Source of the DNA: an uncultured delta proteobacterium
GTDB taxonomy: Bacteria > Myxococcota_A > Polyangia > Palsa-1104
Length of the DNA stretch: 64,000 nt
Direction of reading: 5' to 3'
Assembly (NCBI GenBank): GCA_963785725.1
Contig: CAWAWS010000007.1
Span: forward strand, 480,001-544,000
The stretch's first letter is position 1, and each line of letters starts with the position of its first letter. The notes beneath the pieces are model-generated. The model saw only the letters and a program-made list of their open reading frames with translations. It made no database searches and was not told the DNA's origin. Positions 1,841-59,625 of the stretch are shown piece by piece. A program made the translations under genes and the position numbers.

Positions 1841-1903
1841 TATTGTGCATTCGCATCATGTCATTATGCATTTGCACTACGTTATTATGCATTTGCATCA
1901 TGA
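1841..1903. repeat. 3 x 21-bp TGC-N4-GCA palindromic array
   Basis: TATTGTGCATTCGCATCATGT / CATTATGCATTTGCACTACGT / TATTATGCATTTGCATCATGA, just upstream of sctL. Confidence 0.95.
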
Positions 1904-16763: not shown

Positions 16764-18351
<1,588 letters not shown>

Positions 18352-33682: not shown

Positions 33683-35734
33683 GTGATTCATACTCGGCGT
33701 GTGAGACGGCTGGCTGGCTTCGGCTGCGCGCTGGCGCTGCTGGCGGCGGCGCCGTCGCCTGCGGCCGCGGACGAGCAGACGTGGGTGCACGTCGGCGACG
33801 CCGCGCGAATGACGTGCGGCACGGCCCCGGCCGGCTGGCAGCGCGCGGACTTCGACGACCGCGCGTGGGTCGAGCGGCCAATCGTCTTCGAGCGGCATGA
33901 CAACGCGGCCGCGGCGGCTGCTGTTCCAGGCGAGACGGCCGATGCGCGCGCGCCGGCTGCGGCCACCGACGCGCCGACGAGCGCAGCCGCTCCGTCGCGT
34001 GCGACAAAGCCGGCGCCGCGGACGGCCGGAGCCGGCGCGCCCTCGACCGCTTCACCGAGCGCGCTCGGCGGCGCCACCTCGTCGTCTGGCACGCGCACCG
34101 CCTCCGCGACCGACGACCTCAACCGCACGTCGACCGCCGCCGATGCAGGCGTCGCCAGCTGTGTCGGCGCCCGCTTCGTCCGCTGGCACTTCACGGCCGA
34201 TGCGCGCGCGCTCGCCGCTCTGCGCGCCCTCACGCTGCGCGTTCGTTACACCCACGGCTTCGCCGCCTACCTCGACGGCACGGAGATCGCCCGCCGTCGC
34301 CTCGACGCCACGGCCGGCCCCGACGGTCTCGCCAGCGACGTCCACGGCCTCGAGTTCGAGAGCTTCGCCCTCGCCGCGCGCGGTCTGCTTCACGCGGGTG
34401 AAAACGTCCTCGCCATCGAGGTCCATCCGCACACCGCCGGACGCGCGACGTCGCTCGAGGCCTCGCTCGGCGGCGACGAAGGCCCGCGCCTGATCCGCGG
34501 CCCTTATCTGCTCGGTGTGCGCGAAAACGAAGCGACGATCGTCGTCGACACCGACCTGCCCACGACCGTCGCGCTCGGCTGGGGATCGCGCGCCGACTAC
34601 GGCTCGACCGCCACCGATCCGCTCGGCGTCCACCACGTCATCAAGCTGACGAAGCTCAAGCCCGGCGCCGTCTACCACTACCGCGTCCGCGCTCGAATGC
34701 TCGAAAATGCGCAATTGCACAACGAAAATGCGCAAACGCAAAATGCCAATGTGCAATTGCACAATGAAGATGCCCAAACCACAAATTATAATGTGCGTTC
34801 GCACAATGAAAATGCGCAAACGCCAAATTATAATGTGCGATCGCACAATGAAGAGGCGAAGTCAGATAGTGTGAAGGAGTCTTCGGCGGCGGTGGTCGAC
34901 AGCGGCGACGTGGCGTTTCACACGCCGCCGGAATCGGGACGGCCGCTGCGCTTTGCCGTCTACGGCGACGTTCGGTCGGGGCACGACATTCACGCCGAGC
35001 TCAACCGCTCCCTCATCGAAGAGCAGCCGGATTTTGCCATCCTGACCGGCGATCTCGTCGATCGCGGCACCGACGAAGGGGAGTGGGAGAGCTTCTTCGA
35101 AGTGGCCGCGCCGCTGCTGCGTCAGGTCTGTATCTTCCCGGCGATTGGGAACCACGAGTATGCCAAGCAGGGCCATGGGCTCGCGGCGTTCATGCAATTT
35201 TTTCGCTGGCCCATCGCCGGCGCCGACGAGCCGTCTTGGTACAGCTACGACATCGCGGGCGCGCATTTCGTGGCACTGGACAGCGATCAGTACAAGTCGC
35301 CGCGGCAGCTCGGCTGGTTCGAGCACGACCTGAAGGAAGCGCGTCGCCGCCGCGTCCGCGCCATCTTCGTCTACGCGCACGAAGGGCCGGCGTCGTCGGG
35401 GCTGCACGGCGACAACCCGATCTGCGTGCGCGACTACGTGCCCATCATGCAGCGCTATCGGGTGTCGATGTTCTTCGGCGGCCACGATCACGACTACGAG
35501 CGCGGCCGCACCGGCACACTCGACTACGTCGTCACCGGCGGCGGCGGCGCCGAGCTGCGCGCGGCCAGATGCGGCGTGCCGGGAAAGCGTCCTTGTCCCG
35601 CGCGCTGCGCCATCTTCGTCAACGACCACAACTACGTCATGGTCGAGCTGCTCCCGTCGCTGTTCCGCGTCTGCCCCAAGCGCGTCGATGGCACCCCGAT
35701 CGAAGCGTGCATCCAATACCCGCTGCATCAATAA
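33683..35734 (+). CDS. Secreted purple-acid-phosphatase-like metallophosphoesterase with in-frame repeat insertion
   Basis: Signal peptide ending SPAAA, RGPYLL, FN3-like LKPGAVYHYRV, YGD, TGDLV, GNHE, GHDHDYER; start uncertain. Confidence 0.85.
   Translation: MIHTRRVRRLAGFGCALALLAAAPSPAAADEQTWVHVGDAARMTCGTAPAGWQRADFDDRAWVERPIVFERHDNAAAAAAVPGETADARAPAAATDAPTSAAAPSRATKPAPRTAGAGAPSTASPSALGGATSSSGTRTASATDDLNRTSTAADAGVASCVGARFVRWHFTADARALAALRALTLRVRYTHGFAAYLDGTEIARRRLDATAGPDGLASDVHGLEFESFALAARGLLHAGENVLAIEVHPHTAGRATSLEASLGGDEGPRLIRGPYLLGVRENEATIVVDTDLPTTVALGWGSRADYGSTATDPLGVHHVIKLTKLKPGAVYHYRVRARMLENAQLHNENAQTQNANVQLHNEDAQTTNYNVRSHNENAQTPNYNVRSHNEEAKSDSVKESSAAVVDSGDVAFHTPPESGRPLRFAVYGDVRSGHDIHAELNRSLIEEQPDFAILTGDLVDRGTDEGEWESFFEVAAPLLRQVCIFPAIGNHEYAKQGHGLAAFMQFFRWPIAGADEPSWYSYDIAGAHFVALDSDQYKSPRQLGWFEHDLKEARRRRVRAIFVYAHEGPASSGLHGDNPICVRDYVPIMQRYRVSMFFGGHDHDYERGRTGTLDYVVTGGGGAELRAARCGVPGKRPCPARCAIFVNDHNYVMVELLPSLFRVCPKRVDGTPIEACIQYPLHQ
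34706..34852. repeat. 7 x 21-bp array inside the CDS
   Basis: Encodes NAQLHNE NAQTQNA NVQLHNE DAQTTNY NVRSHNE NAQTPNY NVRSHNE; AT-rich island in a GC-rich gene. Confidence 0.95.
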
Positions 35735-36761: not shown

Positions 36762-36851
36762 CATTGTGCAACTGCGTAATAAACAGTAATTATGCAGTTG
36801 CGTAATATCGTGGTGCATTTGCGCAATTACGTCGACGTGCGGCTGCGTCAT
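36762..36851. repeat. 4 TGC-N4-GC units upstream of metF
   Basis: TTGTGCAACTGCGTAAT, TTATGCAGTTGCGTAAT, TGGTGCATTTGCGCAAT, CGTGCGGCTGCGTCAT. Confidence 0.85.
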
Positions 36852-38568: not shown

Positions 38569-38641
38569 CGTCGCCCTCCGTGGCGCCGCTCGGACGCCTC
38601 TACTTGGACCCTGCGCCCGACCCCAACCGCTGTCAAGCTCG

Positions 38642-38903
38642 GTTGTGCGACTGCATAATAAAAATGTGCAACCGCGTTATAAATTCACAGCTGCAGCGAA
38701 ACAGAGGCCTCGACGTGGCTTCCGCTCAATCGCGAACGAGGTTTCGGGCGGTCAACGTGCAAAAGCAAAATATCGCGCAGAGCGTCATCGGCGATCGCGG
38801 CCGCGACTTGGTCGCGGGCGGACGACGCGGCGGCGGTCGCCCCGGCGTCGCAAATTGTGCGATCGCACCATGTTTGCGGTGCATTTGCACAATATGTTAG
38901 CCT
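38642..38903 (+). promoter_or_regulatory. Cluster of TGC-N4-GC units and putative promoter of the PhaR-like gene
   Basis: Units near 38646, 38667, 38758, 38858 and 38880; TTGCGG(38874)-N18-TAGCCT(38898) with an extended TG, and GGTGCATTTGCACAAT occupying the spacer. Confidence 0.65.
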
Positions 38904-38923
38904 GCGTTCGATCGGAGGCCGGC

Positions 38924-39535
38924 GTGAGCAGCAAGGCGAGAGCGGCGAAGGGCAATAAAGGCGGCAGCGTCAAGTCGGCCGGCGCGCGCGCCGGTAAGCC
39001 GACCGCGACGGCCGAGGTCAAACGCAAGCGAGGGCGGCCGCCGCGGGCGCAGGCGGAGGCGACGCAGCAGGCGTTTCCCGGCGAGCGCATGATCCATCGC
39101 TACGGCAATCGTCGCTTTTACGATCTGGCGCAGTCGCGCGCGGTCACGATGGAGCAGATCGGCGACCTCGTCCGCGACAAGCAGAACGTGCGCATCCTCG
39201 ACGTCGAGCGCGGCAACGCCGACATCACGCGCCGGGTGATGCTGCAGATCTTGATGGAGTCGGGCGCGCAGCTGGACGCCGTTCCCGTCGAGTTTCTGCG
39301 CAAGCTCATCGTGCCGTTCGAGAAGCACACGGCCGGCTGGGTGCACAATTACCTGACGAAGGGGCTCGATTCGTTGGAGCGCGCCGAGCGGCAGGGCAAG
39401 GTGCCGGACAGCGACGGGCCGATGGCGAAGGGCGTCGTGGAGTACGTGCCGCAGGCCGACTACCGGCAGCAAATGGCCAAGGCCGACATCACGCGCAAGA
39501 TCGACGAGCTGCGCCGCAAGCTCGACGATATCTAG
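38924..39535 (+). CDS. PhaR-family DNA-binding regulator with N-terminal AT-hook-like motif
   Basis: GGAGG RBS before GTG; KRKRGRPPR; IHRYGNRRFYDLAQSRAVTMEQIGDLVRD...DITRRVMLQILME matches the PhaR N-terminal pattern IKKYxNRRLYD...DxTRxxLxQII. Confidence 0.85.
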   Translation: MSSKARAAKGNKGGSVKSAGARAGKPTATAEVKRKRGRPPRAQAEATQQAFPGERMIHRYGNRRFYDLAQSRAVTMEQIGDLVRDKQNVRILDVERGNADITRRVMLQILMESGAQLDAVPVEFLRKLIVPFEKHTAGWVHNYLTKGLDSLERAERQGKVPDSDGPMAKGVVEYVPQADYRQQMAKADITRKIDELRRKLDDI

Positions 39536-39687: not shown

Positions 39688-41871
39688 CTACTTCACGCGA
39701 AACGTGACTTGCAGCGCGCCGACATTGTCTGCCGCGTCCACCGCGCGCACCGCCAGCGAATGCGTGCCCGCGACGAGCCCGCTCGGCAGCTTCACGCTGA
39801 ACTCCTCGTTCGGATCGTCGAGAATCCCGTCCTTGGGCGCGAACGGCTGCCAATCGCCGCCGTCGACCGAGTACGCCAGATCCGAGATCGTCGAGAAGCT
39901 GTCGCGCGCACGCCCGCTCGCCCACGGATACGCCACCTTCAGATCGAGCAGCTCGGGCTTGCGGTTGTCGACGAGGAACGGCGTCGACGCCAGGCTATGC
40001 TCGAGCGCCTCCTCGCGCGGATTGGAGCGCTCGTCGGACGCCACCACCTTGACGACATAATTTCCGTCGGGAATCGACTCGGTGTTCCACTCGTAATCGG
40101 TGCGCGTCAAAGGCTCGGATCCGCCGAGCGGCTTCCAATTGCTCTCGCTCTCCTCGCGGAAATAGAGCCGATAGATGAGATCGTCGTCGTCGGGATTCTC
40201 GACGCGCCAGCGCAGCTTGACGACCGGCGACCGCGGCTTGGTCGCGCGCACGAACGCCGACGGTCGCCGCGCCTGCGTCTCCTCGCCGACGGTGAGCTCG
40301 GTGATGCGCGGCGGCTGATTCTTCGGCTGATAATAGGTCGTCAAATCGCGCAGCACCGTATGTGTCGCCGCGAAATTGACTCGCACCTGCAGATAGCGGC
40401 CATCCGGCGACGCGATATGGCCGACACCGCCGTCGCCCGTCTTCTCCATACGCAGCGGCGCCGTCCAGCCGCTCCACGTCTTGTCGGGATGCGACGTGTT
40501 GCCGGCGCGCGTCTCCAGCGTCAGCTGCCCGTGCCCGCTCCAGCGCACGTTGCCCCAGCGCGCCGGAAACTGCGCGTCGTAGACCTTGGTGACGTAATGC
40601 GAATCCTTGGGCGGATCGGCGCTGACACGATAAAGCGCGCCCGCGTCACCGGTTCCGATCAGCCCGTTTGGTGCACTTGCACCATGGTTTTGTGCAAACG
40701 CATCAAGCGACATCGTCAACACTTGGCGCTCCGGCAGATCGAGCGCCGTAATCACCGTGCGATCGGGGCGAATGAGGTAGACGCGGCCGTTGGAGCCGCT
40801 CGCCGCCCACACGTTGCCGTCGCTGTCGGCGAACACGGCGGTGAAGTAGCCGTCGGCGAGCGCGTGCAGCTGCTCGACGCGGCCGTCGGGATCGAGCCGG
40901 TAGATGGCGCCGCGGCCGCGGCGATCGCGGGTCAGCGACGCCGTCGTCGCCGGCGCGGCCGGTGTCGCCGGCAGCACCATCTTCGTGCCGTGCGGCGCGT
41001 CCGGTCCCGTCGAGACGGCGGGCGCGGTCGTTCCGGTGCGCTGGAACTCGTTGACGGCGACGTAGGTGACGTTGCCGCGGCGGGAGATGGCGCGCACCTC
41101 GTCGCCGTCGAAGTCGTGCAGCGCTTGCACCGTCGCGCCGTTCGCGGTGGGGACGATGCGATACAAGATGGCCTGATCGGCCGAGCCGGCGAGCAGCGCG
41201 CCGTCGTCGGCGCGCGCGAGCGACAGGAGGTGCTTCTCGCCGGTCTCGTAGACGAGCCGATCGCGGCGCCCGAACGACGGCCGATCGAGGTGCGACGCGT
41301 CGATGGCGAAGAGGCGCCCCGCCGGCCCGGTGGCGGCGTACAGCGTCTGCTTGGCTTCGTCGTAGGTCATCGCCCACACGTGCTCGGCGTCGAGCTTGGC
41401 CAGCTCCCGCGCCTTGCCGTCGCGGTCGATGAGATAGACGCGCCCGCCCGGCATCGTGCCCGCGAAGACGCTGCCGTTGGGGCCGACCGCCAGCGACGAG
41501 ACGAGGATCGCGTCTAGCTTGCACAGCCGCCGCAGCTTGCCCTTCTGATAGACGTAGACGACGCCCTGATCGCCGGTGCCGACGAAGACGGTGCCGTCCG
41601 CGCTGCTCGCCGTCGTGTACACGACCGACTCGTTGACCTCGATGCGCGTGGCGCTGAAGCCGCTCGTGGCCTCGCCCAGCGACGAGAGCAAGACGCCGGT
41701 CGATTCGCCTTCGTCGAAGTCTTTATAGCTGGTGATGCGCCAGGCGCGCGTGCCGCCGGCGAACGCAGCCTTTGTGGTGCAAATGCATAATAATGTGATG
41801 CAAACGCACAATAAGGCCGTCAGCTTGCGGAGAGATATTTTGCGATCGCACAACGAAGGCGCGGGCGTCAC
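39688..41871 (-). CDS. Secreted beta-propeller protein with C-terminal FN3/Ig-like domains
   Basis: Repeated blades (DGTVFVGTGDQG, NGSVFAGTMPGG, DGNVWAASGSNG), PDGNYVVKVVASD; GTGA-coupled to the SpoIVB gene. Confidence 0.82.
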   Translation of the reverse strand: MTPAPSLCDRKISLRKLTALLCVCITLLCICTTKAAFAGGTRAWRITSYKDFDEGESTGVLLSSLGEATSGFSATRIEVNESVVYTTASSADGTVFVGTGDQGVVYVYQKGKLRRLCKLDAILVSSLAVGPNGSVFAGTMPGGRVYLIDRDGKARELAKLDAEHVWAMTYDEAKQTLYAATGPAGRLFAIDASHLDRPSFGRRDRLVYETGEKHLLSLARADDGALLAGSADQAILYRIVPTANGATVQALHDFDGDEVRAISRRGNVTYVAVNEFQRTGTTAPAVSTGPDAPHGTKMVLPATPAAPATTASLTRDRRGRGAIYRLDPDGRVEQLHALADGYFTAVFADSDGNVWAASGSNGRVYLIRPDRTVITALDLPERQVLTMSLDAFAQNHGASAPNGLIGTGDAGALYRVSADPPKDSHYVTKVYDAQFPARWGNVRWSGHGQLTLETRAGNTSHPDKTWSGWTAPLRMEKTGDGGVGHIASPDGRYLQVRVNFAATHTVLRDLTTYYQPKNQPPRITELTVGEETQARRPSAFVRATKPRSPVVKLRWRVENPDDDDLIYRLYFREESESNWKPLGGSEPLTRTDYEWNTESIPDGNYVVKVVASDERSNPREEALEHSLASTPFLVDNRKPELLDLKVAYPWASGRARDSFSTISDLAYSVDGGDWQPFAPKDGILDDPNEEFSVKLPSGLVAGTHSLAVRAVDAADNVGALQVTFRVK

Positions 41872-43964
41872 TGGCTCTGGTCGTCCTTGACGTGAACGGT
41901 GATCTCTTGTTTGCCCTGCATGACGCCGCGCATGGGCACGACGAAGCGGGCGGCGCGCTTGAACGTGTCGGCGCGACGCGTGGAGGCGCCCGGCCGCAGC
42001 GTATCGATGACGGAGCCGGGCAGATCGGGGATGACGCTGCCGCGGAGGGTGACGCCTTCGTCGGGCGTCTCCAGGCCGACGACGATGGAGTCGGCGGGGT
42101 AGCCTTTGCGCAAGTTGTCGATGAGGCCGCCCAAGCTCTCGGGCGGCGCGACGTCGGGGTGCGCGAGGCTGCCGGCGGTGACGACGACCTTGACCGACTG
42201 CCCGGCGAGCGCGCGCGGCACTTCGAGCGGGATGGCGCGGACGTATTCCTGGCCGGCGTAGGGGCGCAAGGTGACGTAGAGGTTGGGGCGCGAGCCGGGC
42301 ACGAGGTCGTCGGAGTTGAGCGCCACGCCGACGATCTCCGAGACCTCCGCCTTGTAGTCGACGTCGACGTCGATGTCGATGCGGTCGAGGTTGGCGGGCG
42401 CGAACGGGTTGAAGAGGATGTCGCCGATCGCCTTCAAGCCCGACGCCGACGCCAGCGTGCGCGTCGAGACGCCGTCGGGCGAGTAGACGTGATCGATGAG
42501 CACGAGCGGTTTGTAGCCGCGCACGGCCAGGTTCGAGCGCACCGTGATGGTGGCGTCGGCGACGTCGCTGGCCGCGTTCTGCGCGGCGTTGGCGACGACG
42601 GTCGAGGCCAGCATCGGCGTCAGGAAGCGGTGGCGCACCACCTCGAAGTGGAAGTCCTGCTCGGCGCGACCGGGCCCGCCGACTTTGACGTGCACGGGGA
42701 TCATGTCGGCGCGCTGCGACGTGTCGCCGATGATGCCGGCCTGGCGATCTTGCACCAGCGAGCCGATCTCGTTCAGCGGCGACGCCATCTTGAACGACGA
42801 CGACAGCGCCGACATGAACGTGTGAATCTCGGCGGTGGCGATCGGCAGATAAATCTCGCCGACGTTGAACATCGGATGGCCGAAGGCGAGCACTTTGTCG
42901 CCTTCGACGGCGGTGACGGTGCCGGTGCCGGCGGCGCTGACGTCGCCGCGGATGAGCTGCACGGCGATGGATCCGCCGTTCTCGAACGCTTTCGGCCCGC
43001 TGCCGTCGCCGCTGCCGGAGCCGCCGGCCTGCAGCGGCACCATATGGAACGGCTCGAAGACGCGCGTCAGCTCGGCGAACGCGGCGGCGCCGACGCCGGC
43101 CAGCGACAGCGGCACCGACGCGCGCACCAGGCGCGGCTCGGCGCCTTCGGGCAGCGCCGGCAGCGGCAGGCGCGCCAACAGCGGCGAGCGATCGTTCACC
43201 GGATCGCGGCCGTCGCCGATGGCCTCCGCCAAGCTGCGCCGCGCCGACGCCGTAAATTGTGCATTCGCGTCATTACGTTGTGCGAATGCACCATCACGTT
43301 GTGCGATTGCATCATTATGTTGTGCGTTTGCACCAACTTCGCCACCGCGACGACGATATTGCGGATCATTGGCCGCTTCGGCGACGGGCGTGCTCGACCG
43401 GCCGCGCAGCGGGCGCTTCAGGTCCGCCATCATCGTCTCGATGGGCGTGACGCCGGCGATGGGATCCTTCGCGAAGTGCCAGCCATAGCTGAGCGCGCCG
43501 GCCAGGCGGCCTTCGAAGTAGATGGGCGAGCCCGACATGCCGGCGACGATGCCCGAGTGCAACAGGCGCGGATCGTCGGACTGCACGAGGATGATGTCCT
43601 GCTTGGGCAGGAAGTTGTGCAGCACGCTGATGACAGTGACGTCGAAGCGCTCGGGCTTCGTGCCTTTGAACACCGTCAGGCCGTAGCCTTTCATGCCGGC
43701 GCGGACTTCGGATAACGGCATGTAGTTGCCGTGGCGGACGGCGGCAGGCGTGACGATGGGCGCGTTGCCGCGCGCCGGCAGCGACCCGGGAGCGGCGGTC
43801 GTCGGCGACGTCGTGGGCGTGATGGTCATCGGAGCGCCGGTCGTCGCCGAAGCCGGGGCGACCGCGCTGCTCGTGTTCGGTGCGGCACCGGCGACGGAGG
43901 CGATCAGAGCCGCGGCTGCGACCGACGAGACAGGTAGCAGGCGAGCGGTCAGACGCAGGAACAT
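41868..43964 (-). CDS. SpoIVB-type (S55) peptidase domain protein with in-frame repeat insertion
   Basis: GMKGYGLTVFKG, GIVAGMSGSPIY, GTGTVT, LAFGHP; signal peptide from ATG 43964. Confidence 0.88.
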   Translation of the reverse strand: MFLRLTARLLPVSSVAAAALIASVAGAAPNTSSAVAPASATTGAPMTITPTTSPTTAAPGSLPARGNAPIVTPAAVRHGNYMPLSEVRAGMKGYGLTVFKGTKPERFDVTVISVLHNFLPKQDIILVQSDDPRLLHSGIVAGMSGSPIYFEGRLAGALSYGWHFAKDPIAGVTPIETMMADLKRPLRGRSSTPVAEAANDPQYRRRGGEVGANAQHNDAIAQRDGAFAQRNDANAQFTASARRSLAEAIGDGRDPVNDRSPLLARLPLPALPEGAEPRLVRASVPLSLAGVGAAAFAELTRVFEPFHMVPLQAGGSGSGDGSGPKAFENGGSIAVQLIRGDVSAAGTGTVTAVEGDKVLAFGHPMFNVGEIYLPIATAEIHTFMSALSSSFKMASPLNEIGSLVQDRQAGIIGDTSQRADMIPVHVKVGGPGRAEQDFHFEVVRHRFLTPMLASTVVANAAQNAASDVADATITVRSNLAVRGYKPLVLIDHVYSPDGVSTRTLASASGLKAIGDILFNPFAPANLDRIDIDVDVDYKAEVSEIVGVALNSDDLVPGSRPNLYVTLRPYAGQEYVRAIPLEVPRALAGQSVKVVVTAGSLAHPDVAPPESLGGLIDNLRKGYPADSIVVGLETPDEGVTLRGSVIPDLPGSVIDTLRPGASTRRADTFKRAARFVVPMRGVMQGKQEITVHVKDDQSQ
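43257..43340. repeat. 4 x 21-bp array inside the CDS
   Basis: TTGTGCATTCGCGTCATTACG / TTGTGCGAATGCACCATCACG / TTGTGCGATTGCATCATTATG / TTGTGCGTTTGCACCAACTTC. Confidence 0.95.
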
Positions 43965-44171: not shown

Positions 44172-44237
44172 TTGTTGTGCATTTGCATAATAAATGATGC
44201 GAGCGCACAATTCACTGCTGATGTGCGTTCGCATCAC
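44172..44237. repeat. 3 TGC-N4-GCA units in a divergent intergenic region
   Basis: TTGTGCATTTGCATAAT, TGATGCGAGCGCACAAT, ATGTGCGTTCGCATCA. Confidence 0.85.
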
Positions 44238-46086: not shown

Positions 46087-46149
46087 ATGGTGCAGTTGCA
46101 TAATTATATGGTGCAAATGCGTAATTGCATGATGCAAATGCACAATTAC
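46087..46149. repeat. 3 x 21-bp array between argC and argB
   Basis: ATGGTGCAGTTGCATAATTAT / ATGGTGCAAATGCGTAATTGC / ATGATGCAAATGCACAATTAC; overlaps the argC TAA. Confidence 0.95.
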
Positions 46150-47262: not shown

Positions 47263-47354
47263 ATGGTGCAAATGCATCATGACGCGGGCGCGGCTCCGTG
47301 GCGTCGCTGGAGATATTGTGCATATGCGCATTATTGTTGTGCATATGCATCATG
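47263..47354. repeat. 3 TGC-N4-GC units between argC and the sulfatase gene
   Basis: ATGGTGCAAATGCATCAT, then TTGTGCATATGCGCATT and TTGTGCATATGCATCAT 21 bp apart. Confidence 0.9.
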
Positions 47355-50168: not shown

Positions 50169-51210
50169 TCAGGCGTGCGCCACAGCGCCGTGCTTCTCCG
50201 TCCCGGCTTTCCCGGCCTCGCTAGCCGCCCGATACCACGCCACCACATCCCGCGCGGTCTCGTCGAACGGCCGGAACCGAACGTCGAGCTCGCGCTCCGC
50301 CCGCGCCGAGGTTGCGCGGGCGGGGTTGTTCATCGACTTCAGCGCCATCCGAGTCATCAACGCCGGCCGGCCGGAGATGCGTGACCATGCTTCGCTCGCG
50401 CAGGCGAACGCGAATGCGAGGGAATACGGTAGGTCGCATCCGCGGCCCGGGGATCCCGCTCACTCGTTCGAGCGCCGACAGCATCTCGGCGATCGACATC
50501 GTCGGCCCCGCGATCAGAAAACGCGCGCCGTGCTTCGCGCGTTCGGCGGCGCGAATCATTCCCTTCGCGACGTCGCGCGCGTCGACCACGTTCGCCCCGC
50601 CCGGCGGGATCGCGGGCACTTTGCGGGCGAGAAAGTCCTGCGCGAGCTGCCCCGAGCCGGTCGGAGCCGCGTCGCCCGGGCCCCACATCCAGCCGGGAAG
50701 AATCTCGATGATCGCCATCCCTCTCTTCGGCGCGAACGCATGGATTTGCGCGTCGCCGTCCACCTTGCTCCGGAAGTACAGATTCTCTCGCGCGATCGGA
50801 GGGGCCTGCGTGTCCTCGTCCCCGGGCGAGCCGTCGGGCTTCGAGCCGATCGTTCCACTCGAGCTCGTGTGCACGAACGTGCGAACGCCCACATCATCCG
50901 CGAGCGCCATGAGCGCCAGAGTGCCGCGGACGTTCACCGCCGCGAGCGCCTCGGCGTGGTCGCCCGGCTGGTAATACTCGCGGAAGTACGCCGCGGTGTG
51001 GAACACCGCGTCGCACCCGCCGAGAGCCGGCGCGAAGGCTTCCGGGCTCCGCATGTCTCCGACGAGCCACGTAGCCCCCGTACCGTCGAGCAGGCGGCGC
51101 GCCTTGGCGTCCGACCGCACGAGCCCGACGACCTCGTGTCCCTCGGCCCGAAGCGCGCGCACGAGATTATTTCCGAGCAGCCCGGTCGCTCCAGTCACGA
51201 ATGCTTTCAT
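50169..51210 (-). CDS. NAD-dependent epimerase/dehydratase (frameshift near 50433)
   Basis: TGATGLLG, HTAA, YFRSK, VDARDVA; the C-terminus continues in ORF 50169..50360. Confidence 0.85.
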
Positions 51211-51269
51211 ACGGGTTAATATGTGACGGATCCTTCGGGTTTCCATTCGCATTCCAAGCGAGAGGACCT

Positions 51270-51932
51270 ATGCATTCGTTTCAGCCGAGAAAGAAGCCGA
51301 TCCAGGAGCGCTCGAAGGCCACGGTCGAGGCCATTCTGGAGGGGACGATTCGGGTCTTGCTCGACGAGGGGTTCGAGACGCTGACCACGACGCGCGTGGC
51401 GAAGGTCGCCGGAGTGGGCGTCGGGACGCTCTACCAGTACTTCCCGGCGAAGGAGTCGCTCCTGTTCGCCCTCCTCGAGCGCGAAATGACGACGCTCGAG
51501 ACGGAGCTGCTCGGGACGCTCGTGGCGACGGAGAGCCAATCGCTCGAAGCGCGCATTACCGCGACGATCGACGCTCTCGTGCGCCACAAGAAGGCGCACG
51601 CCGAGCTCAGCGTGGTGCTGCAGGCCCACATGCCGCGCTTCAATGGGATCCGGGTCGTCCGCGCGACAGTGCGCCGGATCGTCTCCGCCTTCGCCGTCGT
51701 GATCCGTCCGAGCTTGGCAGCGCGGATGGACGACGCAGAAGTGCAGCTCGTCGCGATGATGATCGCAACCGCAGTCCAGGGGGCGATCGACGGCGCCCTC
51801 AATCTCTCCGCGGCGACCCTCCGGCGCCCAGCGTTTCGGGACGCGCTCGTTCACCTCGTCCTCGGCTATCTCCGCGAGTCGGGGGCGAAGCTTCCGCCCC
51901 GGCTCCGCACGCGCGTCCGTCTCCGGTCGTGA
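51270..51932 (+). CDS. TetR/AcrR family regulator
   Basis: PRKKPIQERS...TTRVAKVAGVGVGTLYQYFPAKE; divergent from the epimerase. Confidence 0.93.
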   Translation: MHSFQPRKKPIQERSKATVEAILEGTIRVLLDEGFETLTTTRVAKVAGVGVGTLYQYFPAKESLLFALLEREMTTLETELLGTLVATESQSLEARITATIDALVRHKKAHAELSVVLQAHMPRFNGIRVVRATVRRIVSAFAVVIRPSLAARMDDAEVQLVAMMIATAVQGAIDGALNLSAATLRRPAFRDALVHLVLGYLRESGAKLPPRLRTRVRLRS

Positions 51933-54721: not shown

Positions 54722-54784
54722 CATTTTGCAATTGCACCACGTATTTGTGCGTTTGCATAATGGTGTGGTGCGAATGCACAATAA
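54722..54784. repeat. 3 x 21-bp array
   Basis: TGC at 54727, 54748 and 54769: TTTTGCAATTGCACCA, TTGTGCGTTTGCATAA, TGGTGCGAATGCACAA. Confidence 0.92.
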
Positions 54785-57421: not shown

Positions 57422-57892
57422 ATGGAGAGCGACACCGACCTCACCAAGTTCGATCGCGAATGGCCCGAATTTCTCAGAGAAGTGGGGACCGCGCTGCCCG
57501 GCGTCCAGCTTCTCTTCGGCTTTTTGCTGACCGCACCCTTTAGCGCCAACTTTCCGAAGCTCACGAACGATCTCAAGCACGTCTATTTCATCTGCTTCCT
57601 TTGCACGTCTGCGGCCTGCGCATTCCTCATCGCGCCCAGCGTCTACCATCGCCTGCATTGGCGGCGCGACGTCCGCGACAAAGAGCAGATGATCCGCACG
57701 TGCAATCGACTCGTCATCGCCGGCATCGGCATGCTCGCGGTCGCCATGACCACGGCGATCTACGTCATCGCGTCGGTCATGTCGAGCCACTCGGTCACGC
57801 TGTTGGCGACGGGAATCGCCGGCCTGACGTTCACCGGCCTGTGGTTCGCGCTGCCCTTGCTGCGCCGTCAAAGCGATCTCAAGCAGTCGTGA
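57422..57892 (+). CDS. DUF6328-like membrane protein
   Basis: DREW.EFLREV..ALPGVQLLFGFLLTAPF, LIAPSVYHR; about 4 TM helices. Confidence 0.8.
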   Translation: MESDTDLTKFDREWPEFLREVGTALPGVQLLFGFLLTAPFSANFPKLTNDLKHVYFICFLCTSAACAFLIAPSVYHRLHWRRDVRDKEQMIRTCNRLVIAGIGMLAVAMTTAIYVIASVMSSHSVTLLATGIAGLTFTGLWFALPLLRRQSDLKQS

Positions 57893-57963
57893 TGCATCCG
57901 CACATTTAGGTCGACCGATTGCCGTGGTGCGAATGCACAATTAATGTTGTGCATTTGCATCAG
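57890..57963. repeat. 3 TGC-N4-GCA units at a convergent junction
   Basis: TGATGCATCCGCACA (overlapping the stop codon), TGGTGCGAATGCACAA, TTGTGCATTTGCATCA. Confidence 0.85.
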
Positions 57964-58099: not shown

Positions 58100-59625
58100 T
58101 TAGGCGCGCACGCGCGACTGCACGCGCGCCGCTTCGGCGGCGGCCGTGGCGATGACCTCGCCGTAGTCGAGCCCCGTCGCCTCCGTCAGCCGGCCGCCGC
58201 GTACGAGGACGCGGCCGTCGACGAGCACGTCGCGCACGTCGCGGCTCTGGCACGCGTAGACCAGCGTCGAGACGGCATCGAACGACGGCGTCGCGTGCGC
58301 GCTGCGCGGGTCGACGACGATGATGTCCGCCCGCCGCCCGACCTCCAGCGCGCCGATCTCGTCCTCGAGGCCGAGCGCCGCCGCGCCGCCGCGCGTCGCC
58401 AGCTCCAACACCGTCGCCGCCGGCATCGCGGTCGCACCCGCGCGCGGCTTGTGCAGCAGCGCCGCCAGCCGCAGCTCGAGGAAGCCGTCGAGATTGTTGT
58501 TGCAAGGCGCGCCGTCGGCTCCGAGCGCGACGTGAATCCCCTGCGCCAGCATCTCGGGAATCGGCGCGATGCCGCTGGCCAGCTTCAAGTTCGACGACGG
58601 GCAGTGCACGACGTGCGTGCCCGCCGTCGCCGAGCAGCGCGCGCTCGGCGTCGGTCGCGTGGACGCAGTGCGCGAGCACCGCGCGCGGCCCGGCCAGCCC
58701 CAGCGACTCGAGGTAGGCGATGTTGTCGTCGCCGCGCTCGGCTCGCACGACGGCGATCTCGGCCTGCTGCTCCGACGCGTGCGTGTGCAGTCGCGCGCCG
58801 GCCGCGCACGCGCGCCGCGACCTCGCGCAGCAGCGCCTCGGTGCACGACAGGACGAAGCGCGGCGCGTACGCCCAGCGCAGCCGTCCGTCGGCCGCGCCG
58901 TGCCAGCGCTCGCGCAGGGCGTCGCTCTCGTCGAGCGAGCTGCGCGTCGTCTCGCGCAGTCGCGCCGGCACGCCGTCGCCGACGTCCATCATCGCCTTGC
59001 CGATCGTCGCGCGCAGCCCGGTCCCAGCGACGGCGTCACACAGCGCGTCGGTCTCGTGCACGGTGGCCATGTCGAGGATCGCCGTCGTGCCGCCGAGCAG
59101 CAGCTCGGCGCAGGCCAGCCGCGCCGCCGCGCGCATCGCCCGCTCGTCGAGCGCCGCTTCGTACGGCCACACGCGCTGCCGCAGCCACTCGAGCAGCGGC
59201 AGATCGTCGGCATGCCCGCGGCACAGCGTCTGGCACAGGTGCGTATGCGCCTGCACCAGCCCCGGCAAAACGATACAGCCGCGCGCGTCTATATATTGTG
59301 CGTCCGCATCACGATCCGTCGCCGCCCCGGCACCCGATTGTGCGTTTGCACCATGGTATTGTGCGTTTGCACCACCCGACGCGCGTTCCGCCCGGCTGAT
59401 TGTGCGTTTGCACCATGGTATTGTGCGTTTGCACCATCGCTCGGCGTCCGCGGCGGGCGATTGTGCATTTGCACCATGGCGTTGTGCAGTTGCATCATGG
59501 GCTGACGCGGCGGCGGGCTCGATGGAGACGATGCGGCCGTCTTCGATGACGACGTCGCCGACCATGACGCGGCGGGCGGCATCCATCGTGACGATGGTGC
59601 CGCCGGCAACGATCACGCGGCTCAT
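58100..59625 (-). CDS. Amidohydrolase, MTA/SAH or 5'-deoxyadenosine deaminase-like (frameshifts near 58800 and 58633; repeat insertion)
   Basis: PGLVQAHTH, LPLLEWL, GGTT, HTHASE, AHCV, HCPSSNLKLASG, GADGAPCNN spread over three frames. Confidence 0.88.
59293..59499. repeat. Compound array of three 39-bp doublets plus one single unit inside the CDS
   Basis: GATTGTGCGTTTGCACCATGGTATTGTGCGTTTGCACCA at 59336 and 59398, with a variant at 59459. Confidence 0.95.

Follow-up and report, generated by a model that had tools for sequence, protein, structure and literature searches.

A PhaR-family protein with an AT-hook-type motif lies among phased operator-like palindromes in an uncultured member of the Polyangia

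Results

A PhaR-family protein with a conserved AT-hook-type motif

PhaR is the textbook switch that couples storage-polymer granules to gene expression. We describe here a PhaR-family protein of 203 residues carrying an AT-hook-type motif, and the short palindromes that surround its gene, in a 64,000-nucleotide stretch of DNA (the window) from an uncultured delta proteobacterium of the Polyangia (genome G000, assembly GCA_963785725.1; positions 480,001 to 544,000 of contig CAWAWS010000007.1, here C7). An earlier note on window positions 38,642 to 39,535, made from the sequence alone, had proposed this protein as an autorepressing reader of the palindromes, a PhaR homologue repurposed as a genome-wide, nucleoid-associated factor. 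The AT-hook PhaR-family gene occupies 38924..39535 on the plus strand, stop codon included, with a GTG start and a GGAGG at 38914-38918, a layout shared by the relatives G001 and G004. The database version of the protein has 221 residues and starts at an in-frame ATG at 38870, which would overlap the promoter described below. We rejected this start and preferred the GTG at 38924 because the 38870 frame is shut by the TAG of the -10 element in both G001 and G004.

Membership of the PhaR family is given by the Pfam domain PHB_acc_N (PF07879), predicted to bind DNA, which covers residues 56-113 (39089..39262, plus strand) with an E value of 7.3e-17 and 61.7 bits against a cut-off of 25; the same gene scores 63.5 bits in a six-frame search of the genome. 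In the AlphaFold2 (AF2) model, the predicted local distance difference test score (pLDDT) is about 90 in this domain, with a mean of 69.5 over the whole protein. The C-terminal part is predicted to be helical and has a conserved ELRRRL end, while the C-terminal PHB_acc (PF05233) region is absent from the Pfam matches of the protein at E values up to 1. No fold was assigned from structure comparisons, all matches being absent or at noise level: a Foldseek search of the AF2 model against the PDB gave nothing at E <= 0.001, the top VIA-align wide match, a MutS domain, had a Z of 5.0, inside the noise range, and a PDB search with the protein sequence gave nothing below an E of 0.1.

Upstream of the domain, the N-terminal tail contains KRKRGRPPR (residues 33-41, codons 39020..39046, plus strand), which has the R-G-R-P core with basic flanks of an AT-hook; the protein length, this motif and the PhaR-type domain are all as the earlier note had read them. 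In an alignment of 27 sequences, R36, G37, R38 and P39 are invariant and hold a fixed place before the domain, with the RGRP hook 16-20 residues N-terminal to PHB_acc_N. A search of 5.8 billion proteins found GRP in the N-terminal tail of 100 out of 100 homologues among the matches listed, and these database homologues are named PhaR by their sources and labelled Polyangia. Searching a genome collection for the locus yielded few additional loci, with organism labels of Polyangia/Myxococcales metagenome-assembled genomes. Five matches from a metagenome search were chance similarities to the low-complexity N-terminal tail and were not used. This conservation indicates that the AT-hook-type motif of the PhaR-family protein is real and conserved.

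An operator-like palindrome within a proposed, conserved promoter

The earlier note had counted at least five repeat units upstream of the gene, and five could be located, at 38643, 38664 (degenerate), 38755, 38855 and 38877. The proximal one, the operator-like palindrome CGGTGCATTTGCACAA (38877..38892), falls inside the spacer of the proposed promoter (38874..38903, plus strand), which consists of TTGCGG at 38874-38879, an 18-nt spacer and TG-n-TAGCCT, with TG at 38895-96 and TAGCCT at 38898-38903. The unit originally placed in this spacer, GGTGCATTTGCACAAT, is present at 38878-38893, so that every part of the proposed arrangement is there. A second palindrome, TTGTGCGATCGCACCA (38855..38870), lies 22 bp upstream of the proximal one, and the same pair is found in G001, G003 and G004. 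Farther upstream are a weak single unit, ACGTGCAAAAGCAAAA (38755..38770, position weight matrix score of 16), and two distal units, the second degenerate, beside a divergent gene for a 130-aa protein (38643..38679); G004 has an orthologous pair next to the same gene (C145:27607/27629).

When the upstream regions of the gene from 11 genomes belonging to seven genera were aligned, the block TGC-N4-GCA-..A..TG.TAG, which includes both half-sites of the proximal palindrome, was invariant, and the TTG of the -35 element (alignment columns T28-T29-G30) was nearly so. In five of those genomes, the start codon comes 7-12 nt past the -10 element. Because the block is conserved in 11 genomes and the start lies just past the -10 element, the promoter assignment and the overlapping operator are supported, and the layout proposed by the earlier note is conserved.

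The five genomes with a close start (G010, G013, G008, G006 and G012; loci L008, L010, L011, L012 and L013) have it 7-12 nt after TAGnnT. From this layout, their phaR mRNAs are probably leaderless, unlike those of the genus of G000 with their GGAGG leader.

As for paralogues, which the earlier note had proposed to count, the genome has two PHB_acc_N genes, the AT-hook PhaR gene and a canonical one at C7:384 kb (99.9 bits). The latter (G000:C7:384463-384705, L001) has no AT-hook, and its upstream region contains no TGC sites but three to four palindromes of the form GGTTnAACC, spaced at about 22-32 bp. One GGTTnAACC site also lies upstream of the G002 orthologue of this canonical PhaR, and GGTTnAACC may be a second, different PhaR-type operator. 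A third type of PhaR, with KYGNRRLYD and no AT-hook (L016 in G015 and L019 in G011), has upstream TGC-N3-GCA pairs 21-23 bp apart, the N3 spacing being the classical one.

Phased copies of the palindrome are concentrated around the gene

The core GTGC-N4-GCAC occurs 22 times in the window versus 2.8 ± 1.7 in shuffled sequences, with none of 100 shuffles reaching 22. Genome-wide (8.9 Mb), it occurs 429 times versus about 350 expected from composition, which is no enrichment. The palindrome itself reads TTGTGC-RWWY-GCACAA, and the fuller unit TTGTGC-RWWY-GCAYMA. Of the 51 strict TKRTGCRNNYGCAYMA matches, 40 are in C7:450-545 kb, a region that represents 1.07% of the genome (a reversed control gave one match). 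A tandem two-unit pattern searched on both strands is similarly distributed, with 30 of 32 matches in the C7 region and the other two at C4:42.5 kb. Using a position weight matrix, 63 of 74 strong sites map inside the C7 region, where about 33 clusters with 78 units form two sub-domains, C7:453-482 kb and 514-540 kb; this matrix, which also underlies the syntenic-density and spacing counts below, is circular in that it was derived from sites of the region itself. The genome-wide binding envisaged by the earlier note is therefore not supported, since 40 of 51 strict and 30 of 32 tandem sites are found in about 95 kb around the gene; nor is the nucleoid-associated role that it proposed.

Sites occupy 5' regions, the space between convergent gene ends and the inside of genes, and two pairs elsewhere, at C4:42.5 kb and C16:197.5 kb, are found just beyond gene 3' ends. 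The window genes around the arrays are ordinary housekeeping genes (such as metF, argB, argC, fpg, RNase H and nucleoside phosphorylases). An origin location of the region was rejected, with dnaA on C19, parB on C6 and no skew switch in C7; the region could lie at the terminus.

Neighbouring sites in G000, G002, G003 and G004 are separated by 20-23 bp (n=51), 31-33 bp (n=11), 39-44 bp (n=13) or 52 bp (n=1), with almost nothing in between. These classes, of about 21, 32, 42 and 52 bp, correspond to about two, three, four and five helical turns, a pattern indicating that the sites are phased on the same face of the helix. The 31-33-bp class cannot arise by duplication of a 21-bp unit. AT content is 61% in the linkers and 70% in the central 4 bp, versus 32% in the genome.

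The gene descends from a PHA cluster and the arrays predate its loss

Of 40 relatives, 10 yielded an orthologue of the AT-hook PhaR; all 10 belong to families f1 and f2 and have RRGRP or GPGRP in the N-terminal tail. Class-III-like phaC genes, scoring 259-275 bits against TIGR01836 (cut-off 365), stand on either side of the gene in G003 and G010, and in G004 the order is phaC-phaR-phaC-acyl-CoA synthetase-SDR. In tblastx, G000 aligns collinearly with both G004 and G003 to either side of an insert of about 10 kb, of which G000 retains only phaR. The earlier note had seen no pha genes nearby, which is right for G000: its gene is not encoded with polyhydroxyalkanoate (PHA) synthesis genes as those of G003, G004 and G010 are, and profile searches of this genome (88% complete) gave no convincing PhaC, with no match to PhaC_N or Phasin_2 and best TIGR01836 matches of 29.5-50.6 bits, the top one (50.6 bits) being a remote alpha/beta hydrolase. 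As this synteny shows, the flanking PHA genes are deleted in G000. Because syntenic orthologues sit inside phaC-containing clusters, the AT-hook protein can be identified as a PHA-cluster PhaR by ancestry.

The protein has diverged, being 42-46% identical to its genus orthologues versus 72-88% for the flanking genes (tblastx segments). In a phylogenetic tree, the G000 clade, which takes in metagenome relatives at 72-86% identity, has a longer path, and G001, G003 and G004 form its sister clade (94/93 support). Soil-metagenome data yielded only short pieces of related strains; one contig has 475 nt between the end of phaR and the beta-propeller gene, a gap too short for phaC, although this is a hint only.

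Syntenic regions of the relatives are dense in sites as well, with 47 in 60 kb in G004, 21 in 27 kb in G003 and 24 in 29 kb in G002. Strict whole-genome counts are 63 in G004, 42 in G003 and 51 in G000, and at least 24 of the 63 sites of G004 lie on the 68-kb contig with phaR. Many of the array positions in G000 have orthologues in G004, for instance inside argB, upstream of argC, beside the 130-aa gene and at the 5' end of the beta-propeller gene. Since the syntenic regions of genus relatives that keep their PHA genes are equally site-dense, the arrays are older than the loss of the pha genes. Repurposing after gene loss, as suggested by the earlier note, is therefore not shown. G000 has kept the regulator together with its promoter operator and the arrays, without synthase genes.

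Sites and protein co-occur at the level of the clade

We determined how the tandem two-unit pattern is distributed among relatives. It is present in 8 of 14 genomes of family f1 and 2 of 4 of f2 (together 10 of 18), in none of 22 from the sister family f3 and in none of 133 genomes spread over 27 further families of the class. Even sampling of the class (151 genomes) recovered the pattern in G000 and G017 only, and in this sample strong protein matches covering the AT-hook were limited to f1, f2 and one f11 genome. Site expansions are seen in several genera (g1, g9, g12 and possibly g4). The co-occurrence of repeat and AT-hook PhaR, which the earlier note had proposed to test, is thus seen at the level of the f1/f2 clade.

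In genus g9 (G012 contigs C67, C80, C236, C288 and C363), the preferred half-site is TGATGC...GCATCA, not TTGTGC...GCACAA, which hints that protein and site drifted together.

Arrays in the window lie within genes and in intergenic regions

Several arrays lie inside genes. A six-unit array within a metallophosphoesterase gene (34707..34848) is part of a 63-aa insertion that is clean and in-frame relative to genus relatives, with no evident target-site duplication. In a soil-metagenome contig of a related strain (run X1), the array at 34717-34871 is arranged differently, and the number or order of units may vary between strains. A four-unit array in a gene for an S55 peptidase (43257..43335) is an insertion relative to G003 and G004. 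A seven-unit array lies in the 5' part of an amidohydrolase frame (59296..59497). This amidohydrolase (58100-59625, minus strand) is found in two overlapping frames, 58585-59625 and 58100-58846; its Pfam halves are in different frames, the N-terminal one bearing the seven-unit array as extra residues, and the gene is therefore frameshifted, a pseudogene or misassembled. Another possibly broken gene lies at 16764-18092 (plus strand), where an ORF with a PocR sensory domain (16764-17459) precedes an ORF that starts midway through a sigma-54 interaction domain (from profile position 56); the two may be a single regulator gene split by a frameshift.

The gene for a 727-aa beta-propeller protein contains a two-unit array (40669..40705) and, at its 5' end, a three-unit array (41775..41853) with an orthologous pair in G004 (C145:14623/14656). 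The annotated N terminus of this protein (LCVCITLLCICTT, window 41775-41871) is the translated three-unit array; the true start may be further downstream, or the array may encode part of a segment resembling a signal peptide. The remaining arrays have three units each. They are found between a divergent MBL-fold gene and metF (36764..36826), in a divergent intergenic region (44175..44236), between argC and argB (46088..46145), upstream of argC (47264..47352), in another intergenic region (54724..54781), between convergent gene ends (57890..57962) and at 1843..1900, the last array of the upstream sub-domain (C7:453-482 kb).

Discussion

The closest known systems are the PhaR/AniA regulators of Sinorhizobium meliloti, Ralstonia eutropha, Paracoccus, Rhodobacter and Bradyrhizobium, with which the 203-aa protein has the N-terminal PHB_acc_N domain in common. 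The S. meliloti site is WNWD2NYGCRNYGCRNH2WNW, validated with mutated sites by electrophoretic mobility shift assay, and its site table, which notes AT-rich arms, includes TTGTGCGGCGCACAA in the validated set (PMC12542648); the R. eutropha operator is YTKNTGCRNYGCANMAR (PMC12849132). These papers describe operators with a TGC-N3-GCA core and TTG/CAA plus AT-rich arms, located within the core promoter, commonly two per promoter, and report autoregulation in other bacteria (PMC12542648, PMC12849132). The resemblance drawn by the earlier note to TGC-N3/4-GCA sites holds for the half-sites, which are of the same TGC...GCA type; the central spacer is one base longer, N4 here and N3 in the published cores. 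As in the known systems, candidate sites are in the core promoter and orthologues are inside PHA clusters. The differences are an invariant RGRP hook, a score below the cut-off for TIGR01848, no detected PHB_acc C-terminal repeat, 50-80 sites gathered around the gene where the known systems have a dispersed regulon, and a PHA synthase and a phasin that were not found in G000 (88% complete). In open-access papers and preprints, neither an AT-hook PhaR nor regional arrays of PhaR operators turned up in our searches; the PhaR proteins described there have dispersed operators and no accessory DNA-binding motif. By its predicted features, the 203-aa protein is set apart within the PhaR family by its AT-hook, N4 operator and regional site domain.

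PhaF of Pseudomonas putida associates with PHA and tethers granules to the nucleoid, with a basic DNA-binding tail that resembles histones or AT-hooks. Its tail and that of PhaM bind DNA without sequence specificity, and we know of no dedicated chromosomal site arrays for either. PhaM of R. eutropha is likewise PHA-associated with a basic histone-/AT-hook-like DNA-binding tail (PMC3556143). A basic tail, predicted to bind DNA in the 203-aa protein, is what that protein shares with PhaM and PhaF; there is no sequence relationship, and a tether role here is hypothetical. Centromere-like clusters offer another comparison, with ParB/parS near oriC, SopB/sopC with its 43-bp repeats, MatP/matS and RacA/ram. 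The sites in G000 are like the parS, sopC, matS and ram clusters in being 16-bp palindromes spread over tens of kilobases near the gene of their presumed binder, tolerated in coding regions and, where tandem, phased. Unlike partition systems, the 203-aa protein has no ParB, CTPase or ribbon-helix-helix domain in Pfam, and the ParB_N gene is on C6, with dnaA on C19 and no skew switch in C7, so this is not a ParB/parS system; no partner ATPase was identified either. AT-hooks have a precedent in CarD of Myxococcus xanthus, a transcription factor that uses eukaryote-like AT-hooks to bind DNA (PMC2919716). CarD is a global regulator with several C-terminal AT-hooks and a domain binding RNA polymerase, whereas the 203-aa protein has one N-terminal hook and a sequence-specific PhaR domain.

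Taken together, we consider it reasonably probable, with moderate confidence, that the AT-hook PhaR represses its own promoter and binds the phased local copies of the palindrome over about 90 kb. Each 16-bp palindrome would be read by a dimer of the PhaR domain, with the AT-hook touching the AT-rich centre or the linkers in the minor groove. Adjacent dimers would bind cooperatively on one face of the DNA, and occupancy of the proximal site would occlude the promoter, leading to autorepression.

Several points weigh against this reading. Of the two profiles that the earlier note had named for a search, PHB_acc_N matched (61.7 versus 25) and AT_hook (PF02178) did not, scoring 12.9 bits over residues 33-43, below its cut-off of 17.4; because of this sub-threshold score, AT-hook membership rests on the motif and not on the hidden Markov model. 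The NCBIfam PhaR equivalog TIGR01848 gives 69.8 bits, under its cut-off of 109.45. The proposed promoter is missing from the output of a plain sigma-70 consensus scan, which gives two others, at 38630-38659 (plus strand) and 38683-38655 (minus strand). Sites at 3' ends and within genes do not fit simple promoter control, the weight-matrix counts have the circularity mentioned above, and kin genomes are not independent observations. Co-occurrence of sites and protein is not strict genome by genome. G003, G006 and G008 have the protein and no strict tandem match, although G003 nevertheless has 42 strict single sites versus 3 in a control. G010 has the protein and its promoter operator, yet 16 sites versus 7 in a control. 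In G002, G007 and G009, there are tandem matches and the AT-hook PhaR was not detected. We count the first two as assembly gaps, not counter-examples, because in G002 (53% complete) the flanking beta-propeller gene is also missing and in G007 (51% complete) the gene is cut by a contig end; G009 has one tandem match only.

We regard as unlikely the alternative of a plain PhaR relic, in which the protein is just the repressor, itself autoregulated, of a PHA cluster now deleted; the extra palindromes would be a neutral, minisatellite-like amplification of its operator, produced locally by slippage with gene conversion and either unbound or bound only incidentally. Orthologues inside phaC-phaR-phaC clusters fit such a history, as does G010, with its protein and promoter operator and almost no extra sites. 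Amplification would also account for the tandem units of 21 and 42 bp, for unit numbers that differ between species at the same position and for the rearranged array on a related strain's contig (34717-34871), but not for the 31-33-bp spacings (n=11), which fit helical phasing and are not unit multiples. G000 and G004 share many array positions by orthology, and sites have expanded in g1, g9, g12 and possibly g4, which argues against a relic, while neutral spread leaves unexplained why there are some 33 separate seeds in 95 kb and hardly any elsewhere.

We think it decidedly improbable that another protein reads the sites, be it the canonical PhaR paralogue, the TetR-family protein encoded at 51201-51929 or another, and that the AT-hook PhaR gene is merely a target. 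Further DNA-binding proteins are indeed encoded in the window, but the motif is of the PhaR-family operator type and the operator is invariant before the AT-hook PhaR gene in 11 genomes. The canonical paralogue has different upstream palindromes and is present throughout f3, where none of 22 genomes has tandem sites. As for G002, G007 and G009, with tandem sites and no detected AT-hook PhaR, the two best of these exceptions are assembly gaps exactly at the phaR locus. Least probable of all, and in our view very remote, is a selfish mobile or repetitive extragenic palindrome (REP)/miniature inverted-repeat transposable element (MITE)-like element that resembles a PhaR site, with in-frame copies like Rickettsia palindromic elements, for although at least two genes have clean in-frame insertions relative to genus relatives, the unit equals seven codons and the commonest unit is stop-free in every frame, the distribution is regional and not dispersed genome-wide as in REP/MITE families with a cognate transposase, the metallophosphoesterase insertion has no evident target-site duplication, the stems are just 6 bp, and no transposase or RAYT-like domain was found in the 52 window proteins scanned (RAYT genes were not sought genome-wide).

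If the AT-hook PhaR does bind these copies, what purpose they serve can be approached only speculatively. One proposal, which we hold tentatively and think rather less probable than its failure, is that the 50-80 local sites form a high-capacity docking or reservoir domain keeping the protein on the chromosome near its gene, and that in relatives making PHA the same domain would compete with, couple to or anchor PHA granules. A bolder version, which we find quite doubtful, is that the AT-hook PhaR and its phased arrays are a sequence-specific "centromere" for PHA granules beside the synthase genes, a domain that would have outlived PHA loss in G000 and now act in local nucleoid structuring or as a protein reservoir. 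If true, such a centromere would be a sequence-specific version of the non-specific job done by PhaM and PhaF. Since G000 has the regulator and the arrays without synthase genes, it is a natural experiment on arrays without granules.

These findings extend to a whole PhaR subfamily of the Polyangia with an invariant AT-hook, around which several genera have dozens of phased operator-like sites, some of them tolerated in housekeeping genes as in-frame insertions. Should binding be confirmed, the protein would be a rare example in bacteria of a transcription factor creating a large local binding domain around its own gene, and it would offer a handle on PHA granule positioning in bacteria without PhaM or PhaF, on the buffering of regulators by local site reservoirs and on how arrays of binding sites invade coding sequence.

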